From Deltaproteobacteria bacterium (GTDB lineage: Bacteria; Desulfobacterota; Dissulfuribacteria; Dissulfuribacterales; UBA3076), in NCBI GenBank assembly GCA_030606515.1, contig JAUWGF010000001.1, positions 1 to 40,571 of the forward strand: DNA of 40,571 bases. The letters run 5' to 3'. This document shows positions 17,702 through 24,967 of the stretch, one piece after another. The stretch's first letter is position 1. The number at the start of each line of letters is the position of its first letter. The translations under genes were made by a program, and so were the position numbers. The notes under the pieces are model-generated. The model had not been told where the DNA came from and searched no databases. It saw nothing but the letters and a program-made list of their open reading frames with translations.

Positions 17702-18742
17702 CTAAATGATCAGGTTTGGAATTTCCATTTCCCCATTTTGGAAAGCTCTGATGAAAGCATCGACGACTTTGGGATCAAAATCCTTTCCCGAACCTTTAAC
17801 GATGATTTCCTTGGCTTTAAATGGAGATACTGCCTTGCGGTAAGGACGATCGCTTACCAGGGCATCATATACATCTGCCACGGAGAGGACTTTAGCCTCT
17901 ATAGGGATCTTTTCCCCTTTGATCGGATGATAGCCTGATCCATCATACTTGTCGTGGTGAGCCAAAATGATAGGAATAATGTTGCCCAGGGGAGCTTCTA
18001 CTAAATCCAGAATATCAGCACCCAGTTCCACATGGTTTTTCATTGTTTCACGCTCTTTCTCGGTCAATTGCGCTGCCTTGTAAAGAATTTCCCGGCCGAT
18101 ATCGATTTTTCCAATGTCATGGAGCAAGGCAGCGGCACGAACCGTTTCAATTTGTTGAGGAGCGAGTCCGAGGTAGGTAGCGATCTTAGCTGAATAGATC
18201 GAAACGCGGTAACAATGGTTTTCGGTATACTTATCTTTGGAAATGAAATGGCGCAGAATCACCAGAAGACCCCGGTAGGTCTTTTGGAGTTCACGCATCT
18301 GTAGTGCCTGACGCTCATAGAGAGTACCCATTGAATATGCAATAATCACTAACATACTGGCCCAAGCCATGATTTCATACCATTGGCCGCTCACTGAATT
18401 GAATTGTTCCATCTCGTTGAACAGATCTGAGTTGAAGTGTAAAACAAGACCTACTAGTAAGATGCTGGCCACTGCAGTCAGAACGGCATGGCGACGTCCG
18501 AAAAAATAGGCGGAAAAAATGGTAGGAATGACGTATAGCTGCAGCAACATCTGTTGGGCGGTCAACAGATAATTCATGATGCCAATGATAGAAAACATGG
18601 ACAAGATCATCCACAGCTCTTTGTTCGCTTCCATAATCTGGCGCAACAATTTTGTCTTCCATCGCCGAAATTTGTCTGAAGTTAAACCGGGCGGTATAGT
18701 GTCGAGAATCAATTCTTCTCTGCTTTTAGCTTGCTCAGTCAT
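17702..18742 (-). CDS. Membrane-anchored HD-GYP-type phosphohydrolase (probable c-di-GMP phosphodiesterase), variant GYHP motif
   Basis: About 5 TM helices, then the HD domain (AALLHDIGKI) and HHDKYDGSGYHP in place of HHExxDGxGYP. ATG 18742 has SD agggggg. The alternative upstream ATG is at 18772. Confidence 0.8.
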   Translation of the reverse strand: MTEQAKSREELILDTIPPGLTSDKFRRWKTKLLRQIMEANKELWMILSMFSIIGIMNYLLTAQQMLLQLYVIPTIFSAYFFGRRHAVLTAVASILLVGLVLHFNSDLFNEMEQFNSVSGQWYEIMAWASMLVIIAYSMGTLYERQALQMRELQKTYRGLLVILRHFISKDKYTENHCYRVSIYSAKIATYLGLAPQQIETVRAAALLHDIGKIDIGREILYKAAQLTEKERETMKNHVELGADILDLVEAPLGNIIPIILAHHDKYDGSGYHPIKGEKIPIEAKVLSVADVYDALVSDRPYRKAVSPFKAKEIIVKGSGKDFDPKVVDAFIRAFQNGEMEIPNLII

Positions 18743-18817
18743 TTTAACCCCCCTGCCATTAACTTCGAGCATCCAATAAAAAAAATCCCATGAGACATTC
18801 TTTTTGACCTTAATTTG

Positions 18818-18844
18818 TTATCGACCATTAAGTTCAATTTCTTA
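18818..18844 (-). promoter_or_regulatory. Sigma-28 (FliA)-like promoter for the HD-GYP gene
   Basis: Minus strand TAAG (18844..18841), N15, GTCGATAA (18825..18818). The consensus I recall is TAAA-N15-GCCGATAA. Confidence 0.5.
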
Positions 18845-18963: not shown

Positions 18964-19764
18964 TCAGGATTTTCCTGGTTCGGTCATCTTATCATCACCA
19001 ACAAGCTCGGGAAGCAGATCTACCAGTCTCAACCAGATCTGTTTCAATGGTCCCGGATCAAAACTATTGCTGCCGTAGCTTGTTGAAAGGGCCTCGACCA
19101 GTCTCTCTTCCCACTCGTCAAGAGCTGCCGCCACCTCACCGTAATCCATGTATTTTGCAGAGGCCCTTAGCCTTTTTATTGCATCCTGACTGGCAGACAA
19201 CCATTCCTCCTCGGGCCAGTCAGGCACATTGGCCAGAGGTTCGGATACCTCTTTTGAGAACAAAGGAGTAATTGCTCCATCCCTAGCCTTTATCGCATTC
19301 CGGGCCTGTCGATCCGGTAATCCCGAATCATGGCCGGGAGTTGCTTCGCGTGCGTCAGAATCGACTTTCTCCGACCGTGAATCAAAGAGTATGGCGTTCT
19401 GATCTTCAACATTGTCTAATGCACTGCTTGATTCCGCATTCTTCTCTGCTACTTCTTGCACCAGCTTCTGTAATCGATCCAGCCTTGAAAAAATCAGGTT
19501 AATAACATCTTCTGTAAAAACCAGACTACCCTTACGGGCCTTATCAAACAGATTTTCCATACTATGGGCAAGTGTGGCTATTTGTTCAAGGCCCACATGG
19601 TCCGCTGCACCTTTTATACTTTGCATATTACGAAAACATTCATCCAGAAAAGAAGAGTTGTGAGACTCCTGTCCTAATAGCAACAGGTTTAATTCCATCT
19701 CCTGGAGGTTTCCCTCGACTTCAACAACAAAATTTTGCAAAATTTCCTGATCAAACTGATTCAT
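18964..19764 (-). CDS. CheA-P1-like Hpt domain protein with Gln in place of the phospho-accepting His
   Basis: Residues 40-80 read LDECFRNMQSIKGAADHVGLEQIATLAHSMENLFDKARKG. This parallels CheA P1 FRAAHSIKGG...HLMENLLDEARRG (recalled). Codon 48 is CAA (19623..19621). The C-terminal roughly 150 aa are acidic and unrecognised. SD aggggat. Confidence 0.75.
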   Translation of the reverse strand: MNQFDQEILQNFVVEVEGNLQEMELNLLLLGQESHNSSFLDECFRNMQSIKGAADHVGLEQIATLAHSMENLFDKARKGSLVFTEDVINLIFSRLDRLQKLVQEVAEKNAESSSALDNVEDQNAILFDSRSEKVDSDAREATPGHDSGLPDRQARNAIKARDGAITPLFSKEVSEPLANVPDWPEEEWLSASQDAIKRLRASAKYMDYGEVAAALDEWEERLVEALSTSYGSNSFDPGPLKQIWLRLVDLLPELVGDDKMTEPGKS

Positions 19765-19817
19765 AGTATCCCCTGGCTCTCCCTGGAATCCAACACTTCA
19801 ATCTGGCTATAAGTTGT

Positions 19818-19844
19818 TTATCGACCGCTGAGTTTAATGTCTTG
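19818..19844 (-). promoter_or_regulatory. Sigma-28-like promoter for the Hpt-like gene
   Basis: Minus strand CAAG (19844..19841), N15, GTCGATAA (19825..19818), 54 nt upstream of the ATG at 19764. Confidence 0.5.
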
Positions 19845-19890
19845 ATGCAATTTCTGCGATCAGAAAAAACATGCCCGCCACAGAAATCTT

Positions 19891-19917
19891 TAACATATGA
19901 AATGATTTGGTCGATAA
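19891..19917 (+). promoter_or_regulatory. Sigma-28-like promoter for the mglB-mglA operon
   Basis: Plus strand TAAC (19891-19894), N15, GTCGATAA (19910-19917), 91 nt upstream of the mglB TTG at 20008. Confidence 0.5.
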
Positions 19918-20007
19918 AGGCTTTAGAGTATTTAATACGGGAGTCTCATTTGAGTGTTTATGCGTCTTTGATACAGAATGGCCTTTTCTTTTTGGGGAGT
20001 TTAAGCC

Positions 20008-20406
20008 TTGGCTGATTTAGTGCTGACCGCCTCAGTCCTGGAAGAAACCAGAATACAGATAGAAAACACCCTTATTAAGGCAGGCGTTAATAATGTGCTC
20101 CTGGTTGATGAAGCGGGCAATATAGTAGTTGCTTGCGGGCACAAAATCTACAACATGGACACTACATCTCTTGCTGCGCTGGCAGCAGCTAACTTTGGCG
20201 CCAGTTCACAGATTGCAAAGTTGATAGGAGAGGACGACTTTGCACTCCTGTTTCACAAAGGGAAAAAAGACAGCATACACGTTGCACGAATAGGCACTGA
20301 TTTGATCCTGGTAACAATTTTCGGAGACAATGTTTCACTGGGCTTGATCAGGCTGAGAGTAGCACAATTGGCAAAAACTATAGAAAAGACATTTGGCCAA
20401 AAATAA
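20008..20406 (+). CDS. mglB: MglB, a Roadblock/LC7-fold GTPase-activating protein
   Basis: NVLLVDEAGNIV, DTTSLAALAAANFGASSQIAKLIGEDDF, FHKGKKDS, SLGLIRLR all closely parallel Myxococcus MglB as I recall it. TTG start with SD ggggag 8 nt upstream. Confidence 0.85.
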   Translation: MADLVLTASVLEETRIQIENTLIKAGVNNVLLVDEAGNIVVACGHKIYNMDTTSLAALAAANFGASSQIAKLIGEDDFALLFHKGKKDSIHVARIGTDLILVTIFGDNVSLGLIRLRVAQLAKTIEKTFGQK

Positions 20407-20413
20407 TTAAAAT

Positions 20414-21031
20414 ATGGCGCTAATAAATCTCAGCAAAAGGGAAATATGCTGCAAGATAGTCTACTACGGTCCCGGACGATGCGGGAAGACTACGAATTTG
20501 CTCTATATATATAATGCCATGAATAATAAAGCCCGTGGCAAAATGTTGACCATTGAGACAAAAGGAGACAGAACGCTTTTTTTTGACCTCCTTCCTTTAA
20601 ATCTGGGGAAAATAAATGGCTTTAGTATAAAAATCCAGCTTTACACCGTACCTGGTCAGACAATTTATGAAGCAACCAGGAGACTGGTTCTTAGGGGTGT
20701 GGATGGTCTGGTCTTTGTTGCTGACTATCTTAAGGTACGTCATGAAAAAAACATAGGAAGCCTCCAAGATCTGCACCGCAATCTCCTTGAGCACAATCTA
20801 ACTCTGGAAGAAATCCCGATTATTCTTCAATTTAACAAATGTGACTTAGTGCCGACACCCATACCCACGCTGACTAAAGAAGAGCTTGAAACAGAGCTAA
20901 ACAGAGAACTTAAGACAAAAATTTTTGAAGCAGCAGCTACTAAAGGCACAGGGGTCTTTGAAACCCTGAAAGAAATAAGCAAAAGGACCGTTCACTATGT
21001 GGCAACAAAGCATCTTTTAACAAATCACTGA
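20414..21031 (+). CDS. mglA: MglA, a Ras-like polarity/motility GTPase
   Basis: KIVYYGPGRCGKTTNLLYIY (P-loop), GDRTLFFD (intrinsic Arg), YTVPGQ (catalytic Gln), FNKCDL, ATKGTGVFETL. It starts 7 nt downstream of mglB. Confidence 0.9.
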   Translation: MALINLSKREICCKIVYYGPGRCGKTTNLLYIYNAMNNKARGKMLTIETKGDRTLFFDLLPLNLGKINGFSIKIQLYTVPGQTIYEATRRLVLRGVDGLVFVADYLKVRHEKNIGSLQDLHRNLLEHNLTLEEIPIILQFNKCDLVPTPIPTLTKEELETELNRELKTKIFEAAATKGTGVFETLKEISKRTVHYVATKHLLTNH

Positions 21032-21084
21032 GGAAATACTCTCAGACTTGTTATTGAAATAAAAAATACTCAAGGAGAACAGCC

Positions 21085-22611
21085 ATGGATCAGACACAAA
21101 AAATCCCTGATCCCAAGAACTTCACTGAAAACCTAGAAAGTACTATTGACGAACTATTTAGTGCATCACGACAGATAGAAATCGACCCCTTAACTAATGA
21201 AGTGAAGGATTTGTCGCAAGACAAAACAGATCAAGGAACGTCCTTTCAGGTTGTAGACCAGGGAGAAAAGCATCCGGAAGAAATCCAGATCTCAGATACC
21301 ATAGAGATGGAAGCTCCTGCTCAACAAATAGATATTACCACTGACGAAAAGATATTGGAATTAGATTCAGGGCCGGAGCTGGAGCCTGAAGAGAAAGAGA
21401 CTGAGGCTGTCAATCTGGAACAACAGTTCAGCCAACTCAATCAGCTGTTGTTGACCCTGGAGTGGGAGGTCACTCAACCACACGTAGTATCAGCCAAAAA
21501 CCTGATAGAGACAATCCGGAAAAATCCAAAGATAGAGGCAGACAAAAATCTCCACGAACTGTTCAATCTTATAATAAGGATCCTTGAAGGGATGGCGGAC
21601 AATCCTGAAAAAGTGCCCACTTCCGGGCCCGAAGCCCTGCAGAAAGGCCTTGACAGTTTAAAAAACCTTGTTTGGAACGAGGAACAGGACCCAAAGGCTA
21701 AAGAGGAACTCTTGAGATCCGCCAAGAAAGAGCTTGAATCAGCCATAGACATGGCAGTGCCTGAGGTTGCCCACGAAGTGTCCGAGGAGGCGGTTTCAGA
21801 ACGCCTTGTTGAGGATGTTAATGATCTTGAACCAGTGCTTGAAGATGCAGTCAAATTCCATATCAAAGTCCTTGATGACTGTATAGGTTATATTTTACCA
21901 GTTGAAAAGCTCCTTGCCCGGACTCCGGGGATGGAAAAGCTACATCATTTTCAGCAAAATGTTAAAAGCAGGCTTGAAAAACAAAAGAAAATATTGGAAA
22001 AGGCCTTAACCGGCGATTACGAGCCATCAGTTGATGTGCGTGATTATGCTGCTCAACAAACCGAAGACATCACCATAGAAATTGATAAAAAAGAAGAAAC
22101 ACCCTCAGTGACCATATCCTGCCCGTGGTATGAACTTGTAATTGCCCAATGGGACCAGAAGCAAGTGGCATTTGTCCCTGAAGATGTAGCATTTGCCGGG
22201 ACTGCTCCCTGGCGGGCCAAGAAAGGCATTAATAAGCTGGAAACCTTTAAATTAAAGAAGCTCAAGACCTGGCCATGGACAAAGCTTCAGCCATTGATGC
22301 AAGGGGAATTGTCGAATCAGGAAGAATCACAGCTTATAAAACTCGAGTTTCCGGTATTGCAAAAATCGATTTCATCTTTCAGCTACTCTCAGCCCCCAGA
22401 CAATCCGACTGTATCAGTCTTATGCCGTGGGGATAAAGGACTGGTCCTCATGCTGGACACCCCTTTAGAGACCATTTCTGTAACACCTGAGTGTTCATGG
22501 GAACCGTCCGCAGAAAGTAATGGACCATGGGTCGGCAACCTGAAGATAGAAAACAAACAAATATCCGTGGCAACGCTGGAAAGTCTCTTAAATACACTGA
22601 CAAATGAATAA
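21085..22611 (+). CDS. Orphan acidic protein (508 aa), function unknown; possible degenerate CheW-like C-terminal domain
   Basis: Strong SD aaggaga. The first roughly 120 aa are rich in E, D and Q. A helical middle follows (LLLTLEWEVTQPHVVSAKNLIETI...). The beta-rich C-terminus (YELVIAQWDQKQVAFVPEDVAF ... VSVLCRGDKGLVLMLDTPLETISV ... VGNLKIENKQISVATLESLL) is loosely CheW-like. Its stop overlaps the next start. Confidence 0.6.
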   Translation: MDQTQKIPDPKNFTENLESTIDELFSASRQIEIDPLTNEVKDLSQDKTDQGTSFQVVDQGEKHPEEIQISDTIEMEAPAQQIDITTDEKILELDSGPELEPEEKETEAVNLEQQFSQLNQLLLTLEWEVTQPHVVSAKNLIETIRKNPKIEADKNLHELFNLIIRILEGMADNPEKVPTSGPEALQKGLDSLKNLVWNEEQDPKAKEELLRSAKKELESAIDMAVPEVAHEVSEEAVSERLVEDVNDLEPVLEDAVKFHIKVLDDCIGYILPVEKLLARTPGMEKLHHFQQNVKSRLEKQKKILEKALTGDYEPSVDVRDYAAQQTEDITIEIDKKEETPSVTISCPWYELVIAQWDQKQVAFVPEDVAFAGTAPWRAKKGINKLETFKLKKLKTWPWTKLQPLMQGELSNQEESQLIKLEFPVLQKSISSFSYSQPPDNPTVSVLCRGDKGLVLMLDTPLETISVTPECSWEPSAESNGPWVGNLKIENKQISVATLESLLNTLTNE

Positions 22612-24967
22612 TCTCGATTCAACTTCGGACAATTTAATTAAAACCAGGTTGGCAGAAGTCGATCTTTACTGTAGTCAAGGTCTTAATAAAGAAGCTCGTC
22701 TTATTTGTTTAGAGCTTCTGAAACTGACAGGTGATAAGTCCCATCCCCTCTATACTGAAGTAGAGTCCCGTCTGAAAGGACTTCAGTTTAATGGCATAGA
22801 AACAGTCCCGTCAGGAAAAACGGATTTCACCACCAGCCCTGAAGATCTTAAACCTGAAGACCTTAAAGAATATCAGGACAATCAATTCAACAGTTGTATA
22901 GGTCTGATAGAAGCGGGCTTTCATTCAGAGGCCATAGAGGAGCTTAAAGCCTTACTTGTAGCAGGATACAGGCCGGGAATAATTCGAGCGAAAATCGGAG
23001 AATCATACCTGCGGCTGGATACGCCCTTTGAGGCCCTTGAGTATTTACAGGAGGCGATTGAGGACACGCAACTATCCAAGGATGAACGTCTGGATGTACT
23101 ATATCAACTGGTACTTACCCATGAACGAACAGGCGCGGTGCCCAAGGCCATTGAGGCTCTGGAACAAATCATCCGCCTTGATCCCGCCTTTAGAAACGCC
23201 AAACAGAGGCTTGAGGAACTTTCCCAAACAGCGCAGAAATATGGCCGGTTCTATTATCTGATTCGTAATCAGTTCCTCTCTGAAGAACAACTCAAAAGGA
23301 CCAAAGAACTGGCCAAACAGGGAAAAAAATCCATAGAAAGTATCCTGCTAAACCAGGTTGGCATAGACAAGACAGAGCTTGGCCGCTCCCTCAGCGAATA
23401 CTATCGATGCCCCTTTGTGGAATTTGACGAACTGGAAGTAGGAACCACACCATCTTGCGTGCGCGGTATCAAAGAACATTTTTTCAGGACCAATTCCTGT
23501 GCCCCGATTCGCGAAAAATTAGGGACCCTTATAGTTGCACTGGACAACCCCCATGACTTAGCAAAGATAGACAATATAAGAAGGGTCCTTAAGGCCAAAG
23601 GCTTTCAATTTGCAGTTTCCCTAAAGGAAGATATCAACAGATTCATAGACTATTTCTATGGGAAATATTCCACAGGAGGATCTGATGATGACGTGTTTGA
23701 GCAATTGGAAGTTGTTGATGAGGATACGGAACTCGAGGAAGAGGATAATGGCTTAGCATCAGATGCTGATAGCGTAGTAGTACAGATAGCCAATAAAACC
23801 ATAGAGGATGCCTATCATCGCAGGGCCTCTGATATTCACATTGAATCCCTGGCAGGCAAACGGGGGGCCCTGGTCCGCTTCAGGATCGATGGCGACTGTA
23901 TGCGTTATCAGACCGTTCCGTATAACTACAAGCGGGCCATGATTTCCAGAATCAAGATCATGTCCAACCTTGACATTGCCGAGAAACGCCTGCCTCAAGA
24001 CGGAAAAATAAAGTTCAGGACTCGCTCTGGTAAAACCCTGGAATTACGTGTAGCCACACTTCCCACAACTGAAGGCAACGAAGATATCGTACTCAGGCTA
24101 CTGGGCTCTTCCGAGGCCATGCCGATTGATCGCATAGGGCTCCTTGATCAAAACCTGGAGCAGCTAAAACAGCTTTTGCAATTGCCTTATGGGCTTATAT
24201 TGGCAGTTGGTCCTACCGGATCAGGAAAGACAACTACCCTGCATGCTGCACTTGGCTATATAAATCGGCCTGAGAAAAAAATCTGGACAGCGGAAGATCC
24301 TGTAGAAATCATGCAGGATGGATTGCGCCAGGTGCAGGTGAAACCCGGTATCGGCCTGACTTTTGCCCGGATTCTCAGGGCCTTTTTAAGGGCAGATCCG
24401 GATGTGATAATGATCGGCGAAACTCGAGACGAAGAAACTGCCACAACCGCAATAGAAGCATCCCTGACAGGTCACCTGGTCTTTTCAACCCTCCATACCA
24501 ATTCCGCCCCTGAGACAGTTACAAGGCTTTTAGGAATGGGAATGGACCCATTCAACTTTGCTGACGCCCTCTTGGGGGTCTTGGCACAGAGGCTTGTAAA
24601 AAGACTTTGTCCCAAGTGCCGCGAGGCCTATCAGCCTGATGACCACGAGAAAAAACATATTTTACACGAGTACGGGCATCATCCAACTCAACCCTTAGAG
24701 TTATCAGACCTAAATGAAATAACACTTTATCGGCCAAAGGGCTGCCAACATTGCAACAGGACCGGCTTCAGAGGCAGGCTTGCAATCCACGAACTACTGG
24801 TGTCAGATGACGGTCTCAAAAAGCTCATTCAGGAAAAACGCCCCGTGGGAGAGATACGGGAACATGCCATGAAGCATGGAATGTCGATCCTGAAACAGGA
24901 CGGCATACAAAAGGTCTTAAGGGGAGATACAGATCTGAAACAGATTAGGGCAGCCTGCATAAGGTAA
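22604..24967 (+). CDS. TPR::T2SSE_N::PilB/GspE-family secretion ATPase fusion
   Basis: Residues 1 to about 205 are TPR-like (e.g. GFHSEAIEELKALL, AIEALEQIIRLDPAFRNAKQRLEEL). Residues about 215-350 are a GspE-N-type domain (LGRSLSEYYRCPFVEFD). The ATPase core has Walker A GPTGSGKTTT, TAEDPVE, Walker B DPDVIMIGETRD, His box TGHLVFSTLHTN, and the tetra-Cys motif CPKC...CQHC. Confidence 0.85.
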   Translation: MNNLDSTSDNLIKTRLAEVDLYCSQGLNKEARLICLELLKLTGDKSHPLYTEVESRLKGLQFNGIETVPSGKTDFTTSPEDLKPEDLKEYQDNQFNSCIGLIEAGFHSEAIEELKALLVAGYRPGIIRAKIGESYLRLDTPFEALEYLQEAIEDTQLSKDERLDVLYQLVLTHERTGAVPKAIEALEQIIRLDPAFRNAKQRLEELSQTAQKYGRFYYLIRNQFLSEEQLKRTKELAKQGKKSIESILLNQVGIDKTELGRSLSEYYRCPFVEFDELEVGTTPSCVRGIKEHFFRTNSCAPIREKLGTLIVALDNPHDLAKIDNIRRVLKAKGFQFAVSLKEDINRFIDYFYGKYSTGGSDDDVFEQLEVVDEDTELEEEDNGLASDADSVVVQIANKTIEDAYHRRASDIHIESLAGKRGALVRFRIDGDCMRYQTVPYNYKRAMISRIKIMSNLDIAEKRLPQDGKIKFRTRSGKTLELRVATLPTTEGNEDIVLRLLGSSEAMPIDRIGLLDQNLEQLKQLLQLPYGLILAVGPTGSGKTTTLHAALGYINRPEKKIWTAEDPVEIMQDGLRQVQVKPGIGLTFARILRAFLRADPDVIMIGETRDEETATTAIEASLTGHLVFSTLHTNSAPETVTRLLGMGMDPFNFADALLGVLAQRLVKRLCPKCREAYQPDDHEKKHILHEYGHHPTQPLELSDLNEITLYRPKGCQHCNRTGFRGRLAIHELLVSDDGLKKLIQEKRPVGEIREHAMKHGMSILKQDGIQKVLRGDTDLKQIRAACIR

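Follow-up and report, generated by a model that had tools for sequence, protein, structure and literature searches.

The stretch of DNA analysed here (40 571 nucleotides, positions 1–40 571 of the forward strand of contig JAUWGF010000001.1, assembly GCA_030606515.1; referred to as the window) comes from a deltaproteobacterium of Seep-SRB2, a sulfate-reducing partner of anaerobic methanotrophic (ANME) archaea in the order Dissulfuribacterales. On its reverse strand lies a gene for a protein of 266 residues with a histidine-phosphotransfer (Hpt) domain of the CheA P1 type, in which the phospho-acceptor histidine is replaced by glutamine. The gene and its parts are as follows.

18964..19764, reverse strand: pseudo-Hpt gene, a 266-residue open reading frame with an ATG start, CheA-derived and made up of P1, a linker and a truncated module 3.

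19429..19764, reverse strand: P1/Hpt four-helix bundle without the acceptor histidine, residues 1–112 (Pfam, phmmer, AlphaFold2 and Foldseek).

19621..19623, reverse strand: codon 48, CAA (Gln), at the site of the CheA phospho-acceptor histidine (His48 of E. coli CheA).

19264..19428, reverse strand: linker, residues 113–167, disordered and poorly conserved, marking the deleted module 2 of the parent CheA.

18997..19263, reverse strand: module 3, residues 168–256, a His-less Hpt-like helical module with the motif SAxYMDY...EW.ERL, the first helix of which is missing in the 266-residue form.

The Pfam family Hpt (PF01627) matched residues 7–106 with 50.7 bits (cutoff 24.6; E = 2e-13). No kinase, dimerisation, CheW or receiver domain was found in a Pfam scan of the 266-residue protein, that is, none of the three core domains of a CheA (P3, H-kinase_dim; P4, HATPase_c; P5, CheW), and the NCBIfam CheA models were matched over approximately their first 110–150 positions only. 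A phmmer search against the sequences of the PDB aligned residues 6–122 with the P1 domains of the Thermotoga maritima, Escherichia coli and Salmonella CheAs in entries 2LD6, 1TQG, 8C5V, 1I5N and 2LP4, with E values from 1e-11 to 8e-14. The three alignments that were printed (2LD6, 1TQG and 8C5V) are free of gaps around the site and place the CheA acceptor histidine on Gln48, which lies within the motif FRNMQSIKG (residues 44–52; codon 48, CAA, at 19623..19621). The downstream helix LAHSMENLFDKARKG was aligned with TTHLMENLLDEARRG of CheA ('lahsmenlfdkarkg' and 'tthlmenlldearrg' in the PDB sequences), the glutamate included, and Arg45, Lys51, His67 and Glu70 around the acceptor site are all kept. 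The original prediction, made from the DNA sequence alone, had described a CheA-P1-like Hpt domain with glutamine at the acceptor position; it proved correct in every detail, including the motif and the CAA codon, the match of the downstream helix with its glutamate, and the lack of a kinase, dimerisation or receiver domain.

A structural model was calculated with AlphaFold2 from an alignment of 51 sequences that included full-length CheAs (an alignment of 13 close orthologues gave a mean predicted confidence, pLDDT, of 54). The pLDDT was approximately 80–95 in the folded parts (75–95 in P1 and 79–95 in module 3); residues 117–167 were disordered, with values below 50 at residues 117–122 and 128–167. 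Foldseek was run with the whole model, and its matches were dominated by P1, which was superposed on 1TQG with a TM-score of 0.91 and a root-mean-square deviation of 1.1 Å and on 1I5N with a TM-score of 0.82–0.85. The protein is thus an Hpt domain by profile, the Pfam threshold having been passed, and by fold (TM-scores of 0.82–0.91, deviations of 1.1–2.5 Å). A conserved phospho-acceptor histidine has been called 'the defining feature' of Hpt domains (PMC10782961). On helix B of the window protein this position is occupied by Gln48, and the protein is therefore an Hpt homologue (a pseudo-Hpt) and not a functional Hpt; it shares with the AHP6-like pseudo-HPts a stand-alone Hpt fold without the histidine.

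The origin of the protein became apparent from a search of 60 related genomes, in which, outside part of its own genus, residues 1–147 and residues 169–255 were both matched inside a single frame of 880–1040 residues. At least 40 relatives hold both halves in one frame, and these long frames carry Hpt, H-kinase_dim, HATPase_c and CheW domains (Pfam). A profile search of 1.84 billion representative sequences returned one stand-alone cluster followed by long CheAs only. Related loci were also sought among genome contigs, which gave five close Seep-SRB2 loci, the distant relatives coming from the separate genome search. The parent CheA (870–1030 residues) consists of P1, two His-less Hpt-like modules and then P3–P4–P5, and an alignment of the N-termini resolved three helical modules ahead of P3: P1 (motif FRNMHSIKGAAGYMG), module 2 (motif DM.RVTNY.G.) and module 3 (motif EED.ELY.IFL.F...PLANIP..W...SA.YMDY...EW.ERL). 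Comparison with hhalign gave a probability of 95% (E = 5e-8) for module 3 against module 2, 60% (E = 9e-5, in register) for module 2 against P1 and 30% (E = 5e-4) for module 3 against P1. Pfam Hpt was the top match of module 3, below threshold, in three of 15 members, and together with the hhalign comparisons this argues that modules 2 and 3 are degenerate His-less Hpt-like repeats; a search of the PDB sequences with a module 3 profile gave nothing significant (best E = 0.26).

When placed on the alignment of the parent, the window protein consists of P1, the linker and module 3 and is without module 2 and helix A of module 3; orthologues of 285–293 residues retain this first helix (EEDREIYKIFLDFAKEIS). 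Module 3 of the fragment is 37–60% identical to the same module inside the long CheAs. The gene is what is left of the N-terminus of a CheA kinase, and by descent, in both orthologous position and sequence, it belongs to CheA. The full-length CheAs of the Dissulfuribacterales (for example P0168 of Dissulfurirhabdus thermomarina, with P0163 being the closest) are its direct evolutionary parents: they share with it 35–62% identity in P1 and module 3, the genomic site and the divergent promoter arrangement, whereas His48, module 2, helix A of module 3, a linker motif LESAIDDLF and the P3–P4–P5 core are found in the parent only. The C-terminal half, listed as unrecognised in the original prediction, is indeed blank in Pfam but is not novel, as it comprises the linker and module 3 of this long CheA family. 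The description of the protein as stand-alone in kind was not supported, since it is the truncated N-terminus of a CheA of approximately 900 residues that is found at this very site in related genera; the term 'stand-alone forms' is used below for the orthologues without a kinase core.

Twelve orthologues with 61–93% identity were found among 5.8 billion proteins, with glutamine at position 48 in all except P0002 (His) and P0007 (Glu). Codon 48 read CAA at 12 loci, which represent at least seven separate assemblies (among them E20SeepSRB2, FWG174_SeepSRB2, UBA3076, the Guaymas metagenome-assembled genome B4_G9 and CSMAG_2277, in addition to JGI and ENA metagenomes), two of the 12 being the same record and three pairs having an identical protein. 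The histidine variant (P0002, locus L042) has CAC and the glutamate variant GAA, each one step from CAA. The residues in and around the site were compared between 40 full-length CheAs and 11 stand-alone forms.

Residue 48: His in 40 of 40 full-length CheAs; Gln in nine, His in one and Glu in one of the stand-alone forms.

Arg45: conserved in the full-length CheAs and in the stand-alone forms.

Lys51: conserved in the full-length CheAs; Lys in ten and Arg in one of the stand-alone forms.

His67: conserved in the full-length CheAs and in the stand-alone forms.

Glu70: conserved in the full-length CheAs and in the stand-alone forms.

Residue 56 (His in the window protein): Tyr in all 40 full-length CheAs; His in six, Gln in one and Tyr in four of the stand-alone forms.

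The stand-alone forms make up one clade with 100/100 support, placed among the CheA N-termini; both of its basal branches have glutamine, and the histidine form is nested beside glutamine forms. The simplest history would be one change from histidine to glutamine on the stem of the clade, followed by one reversal and one change to glutamate, and Gln48 is the ancestral state of the stand-alone forms. The original prediction had posed the question of whether Gln48 is conserved, with histidine in orthologues as a refuting outcome; glutamine prevails, in nine of the 11 aligned forms and as CAA at the 12 loci, but one close orthologue has histidine (CAC) and one glutamate, so that the position is not strictly fixed. 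His56, in the segment AADHVG, had been named as another possible acceptor and was ruled out as such by the gapless alignments and by its lack of conservation; no other conserved histidine can take the place of the acceptor, and His35 varies among the orthologues.

No match to H-kinase_dim was found in any of the six genomes with an intact fragment (G000, the window genome, and G003, G005, G007, G010 and G017; 76–95% complete), and such matches were found in eight other genomes of the genus. The window genome is a metagenome-assembled genome of 202 contigs (76% complete) in which no CheW, MCP, CheB or H-kinase_dim was found; across the six genomes there were zero or one MCP matches per genome, four of the six having none. 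Searches of the window genome with the ancestral operon proteins using tblastn gave generic receiver matches only, and the parent CheA gave one generic HATPase match. A split CheA with its kinase half encoded elsewhere, as in CheA3/CheA4 of Rhodobacter sphaeroides, was considered and rejected on the same grounds, namely the absence of H-kinase_dim from the six genomes and the generic nature of the HATPase match. With no acceptor residue and no cognate kinase, any function of the fragment would have to be phosphorylation-independent.

The only other Hpt in the window genome is a protein of 120 residues with a normal SHSLKG site on contig C22 (L005 1462..3244). Its gene follows those of a receiver protein and a histidine-kinase fragment, which is the arrangement of an ordinary hybrid phosphorelay.

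The neighbours of the pseudo-Hpt gene are as follows.

17702..18772, reverse strand: membrane HD-GYP (HD_5) gene, downstream (Pfam).

20008..20406, forward strand: mglB (Pfam).

20414..21031, forward strand: mglA (Pfam).

21085..22611, forward strand: protein X, 508 residues.

22604..24967, forward strand: TPR-MshEN-PilB-type ATPase (Pfam).

The forward-strand cassette (20008..24967) lies opposite the che operon, or what remains of it, in every relative examined. The ancestral operon at this site is found throughout the order and has the order HDOD, CheB-like, CheB-like, PatA_N/DUF4388-REC-CheB-like, CheY and CheA. In other genera and families (loci L027, L028, L029, L030, L032, L034 and L054) the full che operon is divergent from mglB-mglA-X-(TPR-MshEN-PilB-type ATPase), and the closest full-length relative (P0163, 903 residues, locus L054) has the same arrangement; no MCP, CheW or CheR was found in the ancestral che cluster of the Dissulfuribacterales relatives. 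The half of this arrangement that the window has retained lies at 19765..24967. The HD-GYP gene is present in the window, in G017, in G015 and partially in G009 (loci L033, L046 and L053) and is absent from L001 and from the full-operon loci; the ancestral che operon did not include it. MshEN domains bind cyclic di-GMP, and as the ATPase of the cassette carries one, a cyclic di-GMP link to the cassette is possible.

The stretch from mglB to the transketolase gene (tkt) was compared within Seep-SRB2, and the following states of the site were found.

CheB2-like gene, 293-residue fragment and HD-GYP gene: G017.

266-residue fragment and HD-GYP gene: the window.

Fragment alone: L001 and L043.

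Frameshifted piece over residues 133–266: G009.

Scraps of 20–47 residues: G015, G006, G002, G012 and G008.

Empty: G016, G004 and G011.

In G017 the CheB2-like receiver protein is intact, and its gene lies 43 nt upstream of that of the fragment. Among the 18 genomes of the genus, mglB was found in 16 and the intact fragment in six, the site elsewhere being empty or holding scraps. The main text of the principal genomics paper on Seep-SRB makes no mention of chemotaxis, MglA or flagella (PMC10553843).

Three exact copies of the octamer GTCGATAA were found in the 40.6 kb window, against 0.71 expected, each just ahead of one of the genes at the locus.

19818..19825, reverse strand: GTCGATAA box, 54 nt upstream of the pseudo-Hpt start codon, interpreted as a −10 element of the sigma-28 type.

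19910..19917, forward strand: GTCGATAA box upstream of mglB.

18818..18825, reverse strand: GTCGATAA box upstream of the HD-GYP gene.

By its established consensus we take GTCGATAA to be a sigma-28-type −10 box. Orthologous loci retain the two divergent boxes, which precede mglB and the HDOD gene in the full-operon locus L027. A FliA orthologue was found in the window genome (267 bits) and FliA in all 18 genomes of the genus, and a sigma-70 promoter scan of the intergenic region returned nothing. The box at 19818..19825 is predicted to be the former promoter of the che operon. That the fragment sits behind this old promoter accounts for the 'matching promoter' that the original prediction had seen ahead of both the pseudo-Hpt gene and mglBA, an observation borne out by the same box preceding both. 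The JGI gene call P0005 (L001 8001..8927, 308 residues) has an N-terminal extension of 42 residues that is unique among the orthologues and that contains the promoter box; the true start of P0005 is probably at the conserved MNQFDQE.

The ratio of non-synonymous to synonymous substitution rates (dN/dS) was calculated pairwise (NG86) for the fragment, its parts and the neighbouring genes.

Fragment, whole: 0.18–0.49, median approximately 0.29.

Fragment, P1: 0.26.

Fragment, linker: 0.54, up to 1.29 in some pairs.

Fragment, module 3: 0.16.

mglB: 0.11–0.26, with 0.43 for one near-identical pair.

mglA: 0.07–0.24.

Protein X: 0.32.

tkt: 0.14–0.19.

The deficit of non-synonymous changes in the fragment relative to neutrality gave binomial P values from 6e-16 to 5e-3. 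The frame of 266–293 codons was unbroken in all 14 locus sequences, which come from at least nine separate assemblies and differ by a synonymous divergence (dS) of up to 0.65. Identity to the full-length homologues was 51% in P1 and 48.5% in module 3, and the full-length proteins are 54 and 47.5% identical among themselves in the same modules. As these values match, both folded modules evolve under the normal constraint of the family, the acceptor residue excepted.

Taken together, the intact frame, the dN/dS of approximately 0.3 (0.16 in module 3) and the divergence at family level suggest that the fragment is still a working protein. Judged from these sequence data it is rather likely to be functional yet dispensable, the latter because it has been lost repeatedly across sister species. 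The best overall reading, which we hold to be probable though well short of certain, is that of a putative phospho-independent binding module, a non-phosphorylatable relic of a CheA that has been kept in some lineages. Deletions have eroded the che operon in the Seep-SRB2 genus, and the window genome has kept P1 and most of module 3 as an in-frame fusion that immediately follows the promoter box of the former operon. The change of the acceptor histidine to glutamine, a single third-base transversion from CAY to CAA, took place at the base of the stand-alone clade. The role that was retained would most likely be one that P1 and module 3 had in the parent CheA, namely the binding of partners, and the fragment may act as an adaptor or decoy that is co-expressed with the MglA/MglB–PilB module. 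P1 domains of CheA contact receiver domains (those of CheY and CheB) beside His48, an arrangement seen in structures 2LP4 and 3KYJ. Since the receiver-contact surface is intact and a CheB2-like protein is encoded upstream in G017, a receiver-domain protein would be the most likely candidate partner.

A number of observations weigh against a retained function. Sister species have a frameshifted gene, scraps or no gene at all, and on a tkt-gene tree, which as a midpoint-rooted tree of a single gene is only a proxy for losses, the intact and decayed states are interleaved with at least four to five independent losses. Position 48 toggles between glutamine, histidine and glutamate, the first helix of module 3 has been lost in the 266-residue form and the linker has a dN/dS of 0.54 that rises to 1.29 in some pairs. 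Moreover, with the window genome being only 76% complete, the absence of a CheA rests mainly on the relatives that are 94–95% complete.

The strongest of the alternatives, although we regard it as unlikely, is a non-functional relic: the gene would be a slowly decaying pseudogene, still free of stop codons, in which the apparent constraint is residual or stems from short divergence times. It draws on the series of states at the site within the genus (frameshift, scraps, nothing), which arose at no fewer than four to five points on the tkt tree, and on the loss of the catalytic histidine, of module 2 and of helix A of module 3, in addition to the relaxed linker. Decay is difficult to reconcile with a frame that is intact in 14 locus sequences from at least nine assemblies at dS values of up to 0.65, with a dN/dS of 0.29 overall and 0.16 in module 3 (P down to 6e-16) and with modules that are no further from the full-length homologues than those are from one another. 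Arg45, Lys51, His67 and Glu70 are kept, as are the start context and the promoter box.

A variant of the retained binding module, in which P1 and module 3 contact MglA/MglB, protein X or the TPR-PilB-type ATPase directly as a phosphorylation-independent vestige of a Che-to-Mgl coupling, appears distinctly improbable. No co-occurrence of the fragment with mglBA was found beyond their shared locus ancestry, and the cassette persists in species without the fragment and so does not need it. The original prediction had proposed a decoy or docking partner for a CheY-like or MglA-associated protein, prompted by the synteny with mglBA. That the gene lies close to mglBA behind the same type of promoter was inherited from the ancestral che operon and is no evidence of a dedicated MglA partnership. 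If such a vestige were real, it would expose a scaffold function of the His-less N-terminal Hpt modules of CheA.

It is very unlikely that the fragment is still a phosphotransfer protein, in which another residue, or the histidine of the CAC variant, would be phosphorylated by the hybrid histidine kinase/receiver of the genome. The orthologue P0002 (L042) does have His48, a hybrid kinase–receiver–Hpt system is present on contig C22 and the residues flanking the acceptor site are intact. Nevertheless, glutamine is found in 12 of the 14 locus sequences and on both basal branches, a further variant has glutamate, and neither of the other candidate histidines is conserved (at residue 56 the 293-residue forms and every full-length CheA have tyrosine, and His35 is variable). 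The classic mutant of E. coli CheA that is not phosphorylated has the same substitution, H48Q. The His-less Hpt domains of Pseudomonas aeruginosa ChpA are likewise not phosphorylated in vitro (PMC10782961).

An artefact of sequencing or assembly, either a wrong base call at codon 48 or a chimeric contig in which cheA was cut short, might be suspected in a fragmented genome of 202 contigs and 76% completeness but has a negligible probability and is refuted by the same CAA, gene boundaries and neighbours in separate assemblies from different studies.

Among known systems, the non-phosphorylatable, putatively phospho-independent relic resembles the P1 domain of CheA (T. maritima 1TQG, Salmonella 1I5N and E. 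coli 8C5V/2LP4), with which it shares the fold, the Pfam Hpt family, the FRxxHSIKG and HxxENLxD motifs and Lys51, His67 and Glu70; it differs in having glutamine at the acceptor position, no P3–P4–P5 attached and no CheA kinase in the genome. The E. coli H48Q mutant has the same substitution at the same position, engineered there in a full-length kinase, whereas the fragment is natural, clade-fixed and without a kinase. The AHP6-type pseudo-HPt of Arabidopsis is thought to compete for partners and not to transfer phosphate. It is likewise a stand-alone Hpt fold with the histidine replaced, but it is eukaryotic, of the YPD1 type and derived from a stand-alone Hpt, whereas the fragment is of the CheA-P1 type and arose by truncation of a kinase, and competition by it is putative. 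His-less Hpt domains also occur in multi-Hpt CheAs (P. aeruginosa ChpA, and Hpt2 and Hpt3 of R. sphaeroides CheA3), where their function is 'yet to be determined' (PMC10782961). The parent CheA has two domains of the same sort, its modules 2 and 3. The domains in ChpA and CheA3 sit in active or partnered kinases, in contrast to the fragment, which is a once-active P1 that lost its histidine after deletion of the kinase and stands alone.

The ancestral operon itself is reminiscent of the Frz chemosensory system of Myxococcus xanthus, which acts on MglA/MglB polarity (PMC3441718). Frz is a Che-type system coupled in function to MglA/MglB and to motility by type IV pili, and the operon here is physically paired with mglBA and a PilB-type ATPase. 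They differ in that the coupling here is suggested by synteny, in that the cluster has three CheB-like proteins and no MCP, CheW or CheR, and in that the window genome keeps only the fragment.

A short motif, [LIVMF][EDNQ]x[AST][ILVM][DE]x[LIMF]F, was found in two unrelated proteins: at the N-terminus of protein X, the product of the gene after mglA (eight of eight examined), and, in 28 of 40 full-length CheAs, in the linker that joins module 3 to P3. It reads LESTIDELF in protein X of the window (residues 17–25, 21133..21159) and lies at residues 385–393 in the linker of the CheA P0015. There were five occurrences in the 775 000 residues of open frames of the window genome, and the 266-residue fragment is without the motif. 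The motif resembles the CheY-P-binding peptides of FliM-N and CheZ-C, and owing to this likeness it may mark docking sites for the CheY of the operon, on both kinase and output.

What is new here is a free-standing, selected CheA-P1 remnant in bacteria with a natural H48Q substitution; His-less Hpts, plant pseudo-HPts and the H48Q mutant were known before. It is not a new kind of system, and the gene is dispensable in many sister species. The locus records how a chemosensory operon was eroded step by step in Seep-SRB2 bacteria, which live as obligate syntrophs with methane-oxidising archaea, while the MglA–PilB cassette was kept. A once-active P1 lost its histidine only after the deletion of the kinase and the operon, yet both it and the His-less Hpt-like module that accompanies it are under purifying selection at the usual rate of the family. 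His-less Hpt-like modules that have been freed from their kinase in this way are a clean natural test case for a phosphorylation-independent role of the N-terminal modules of CheA.

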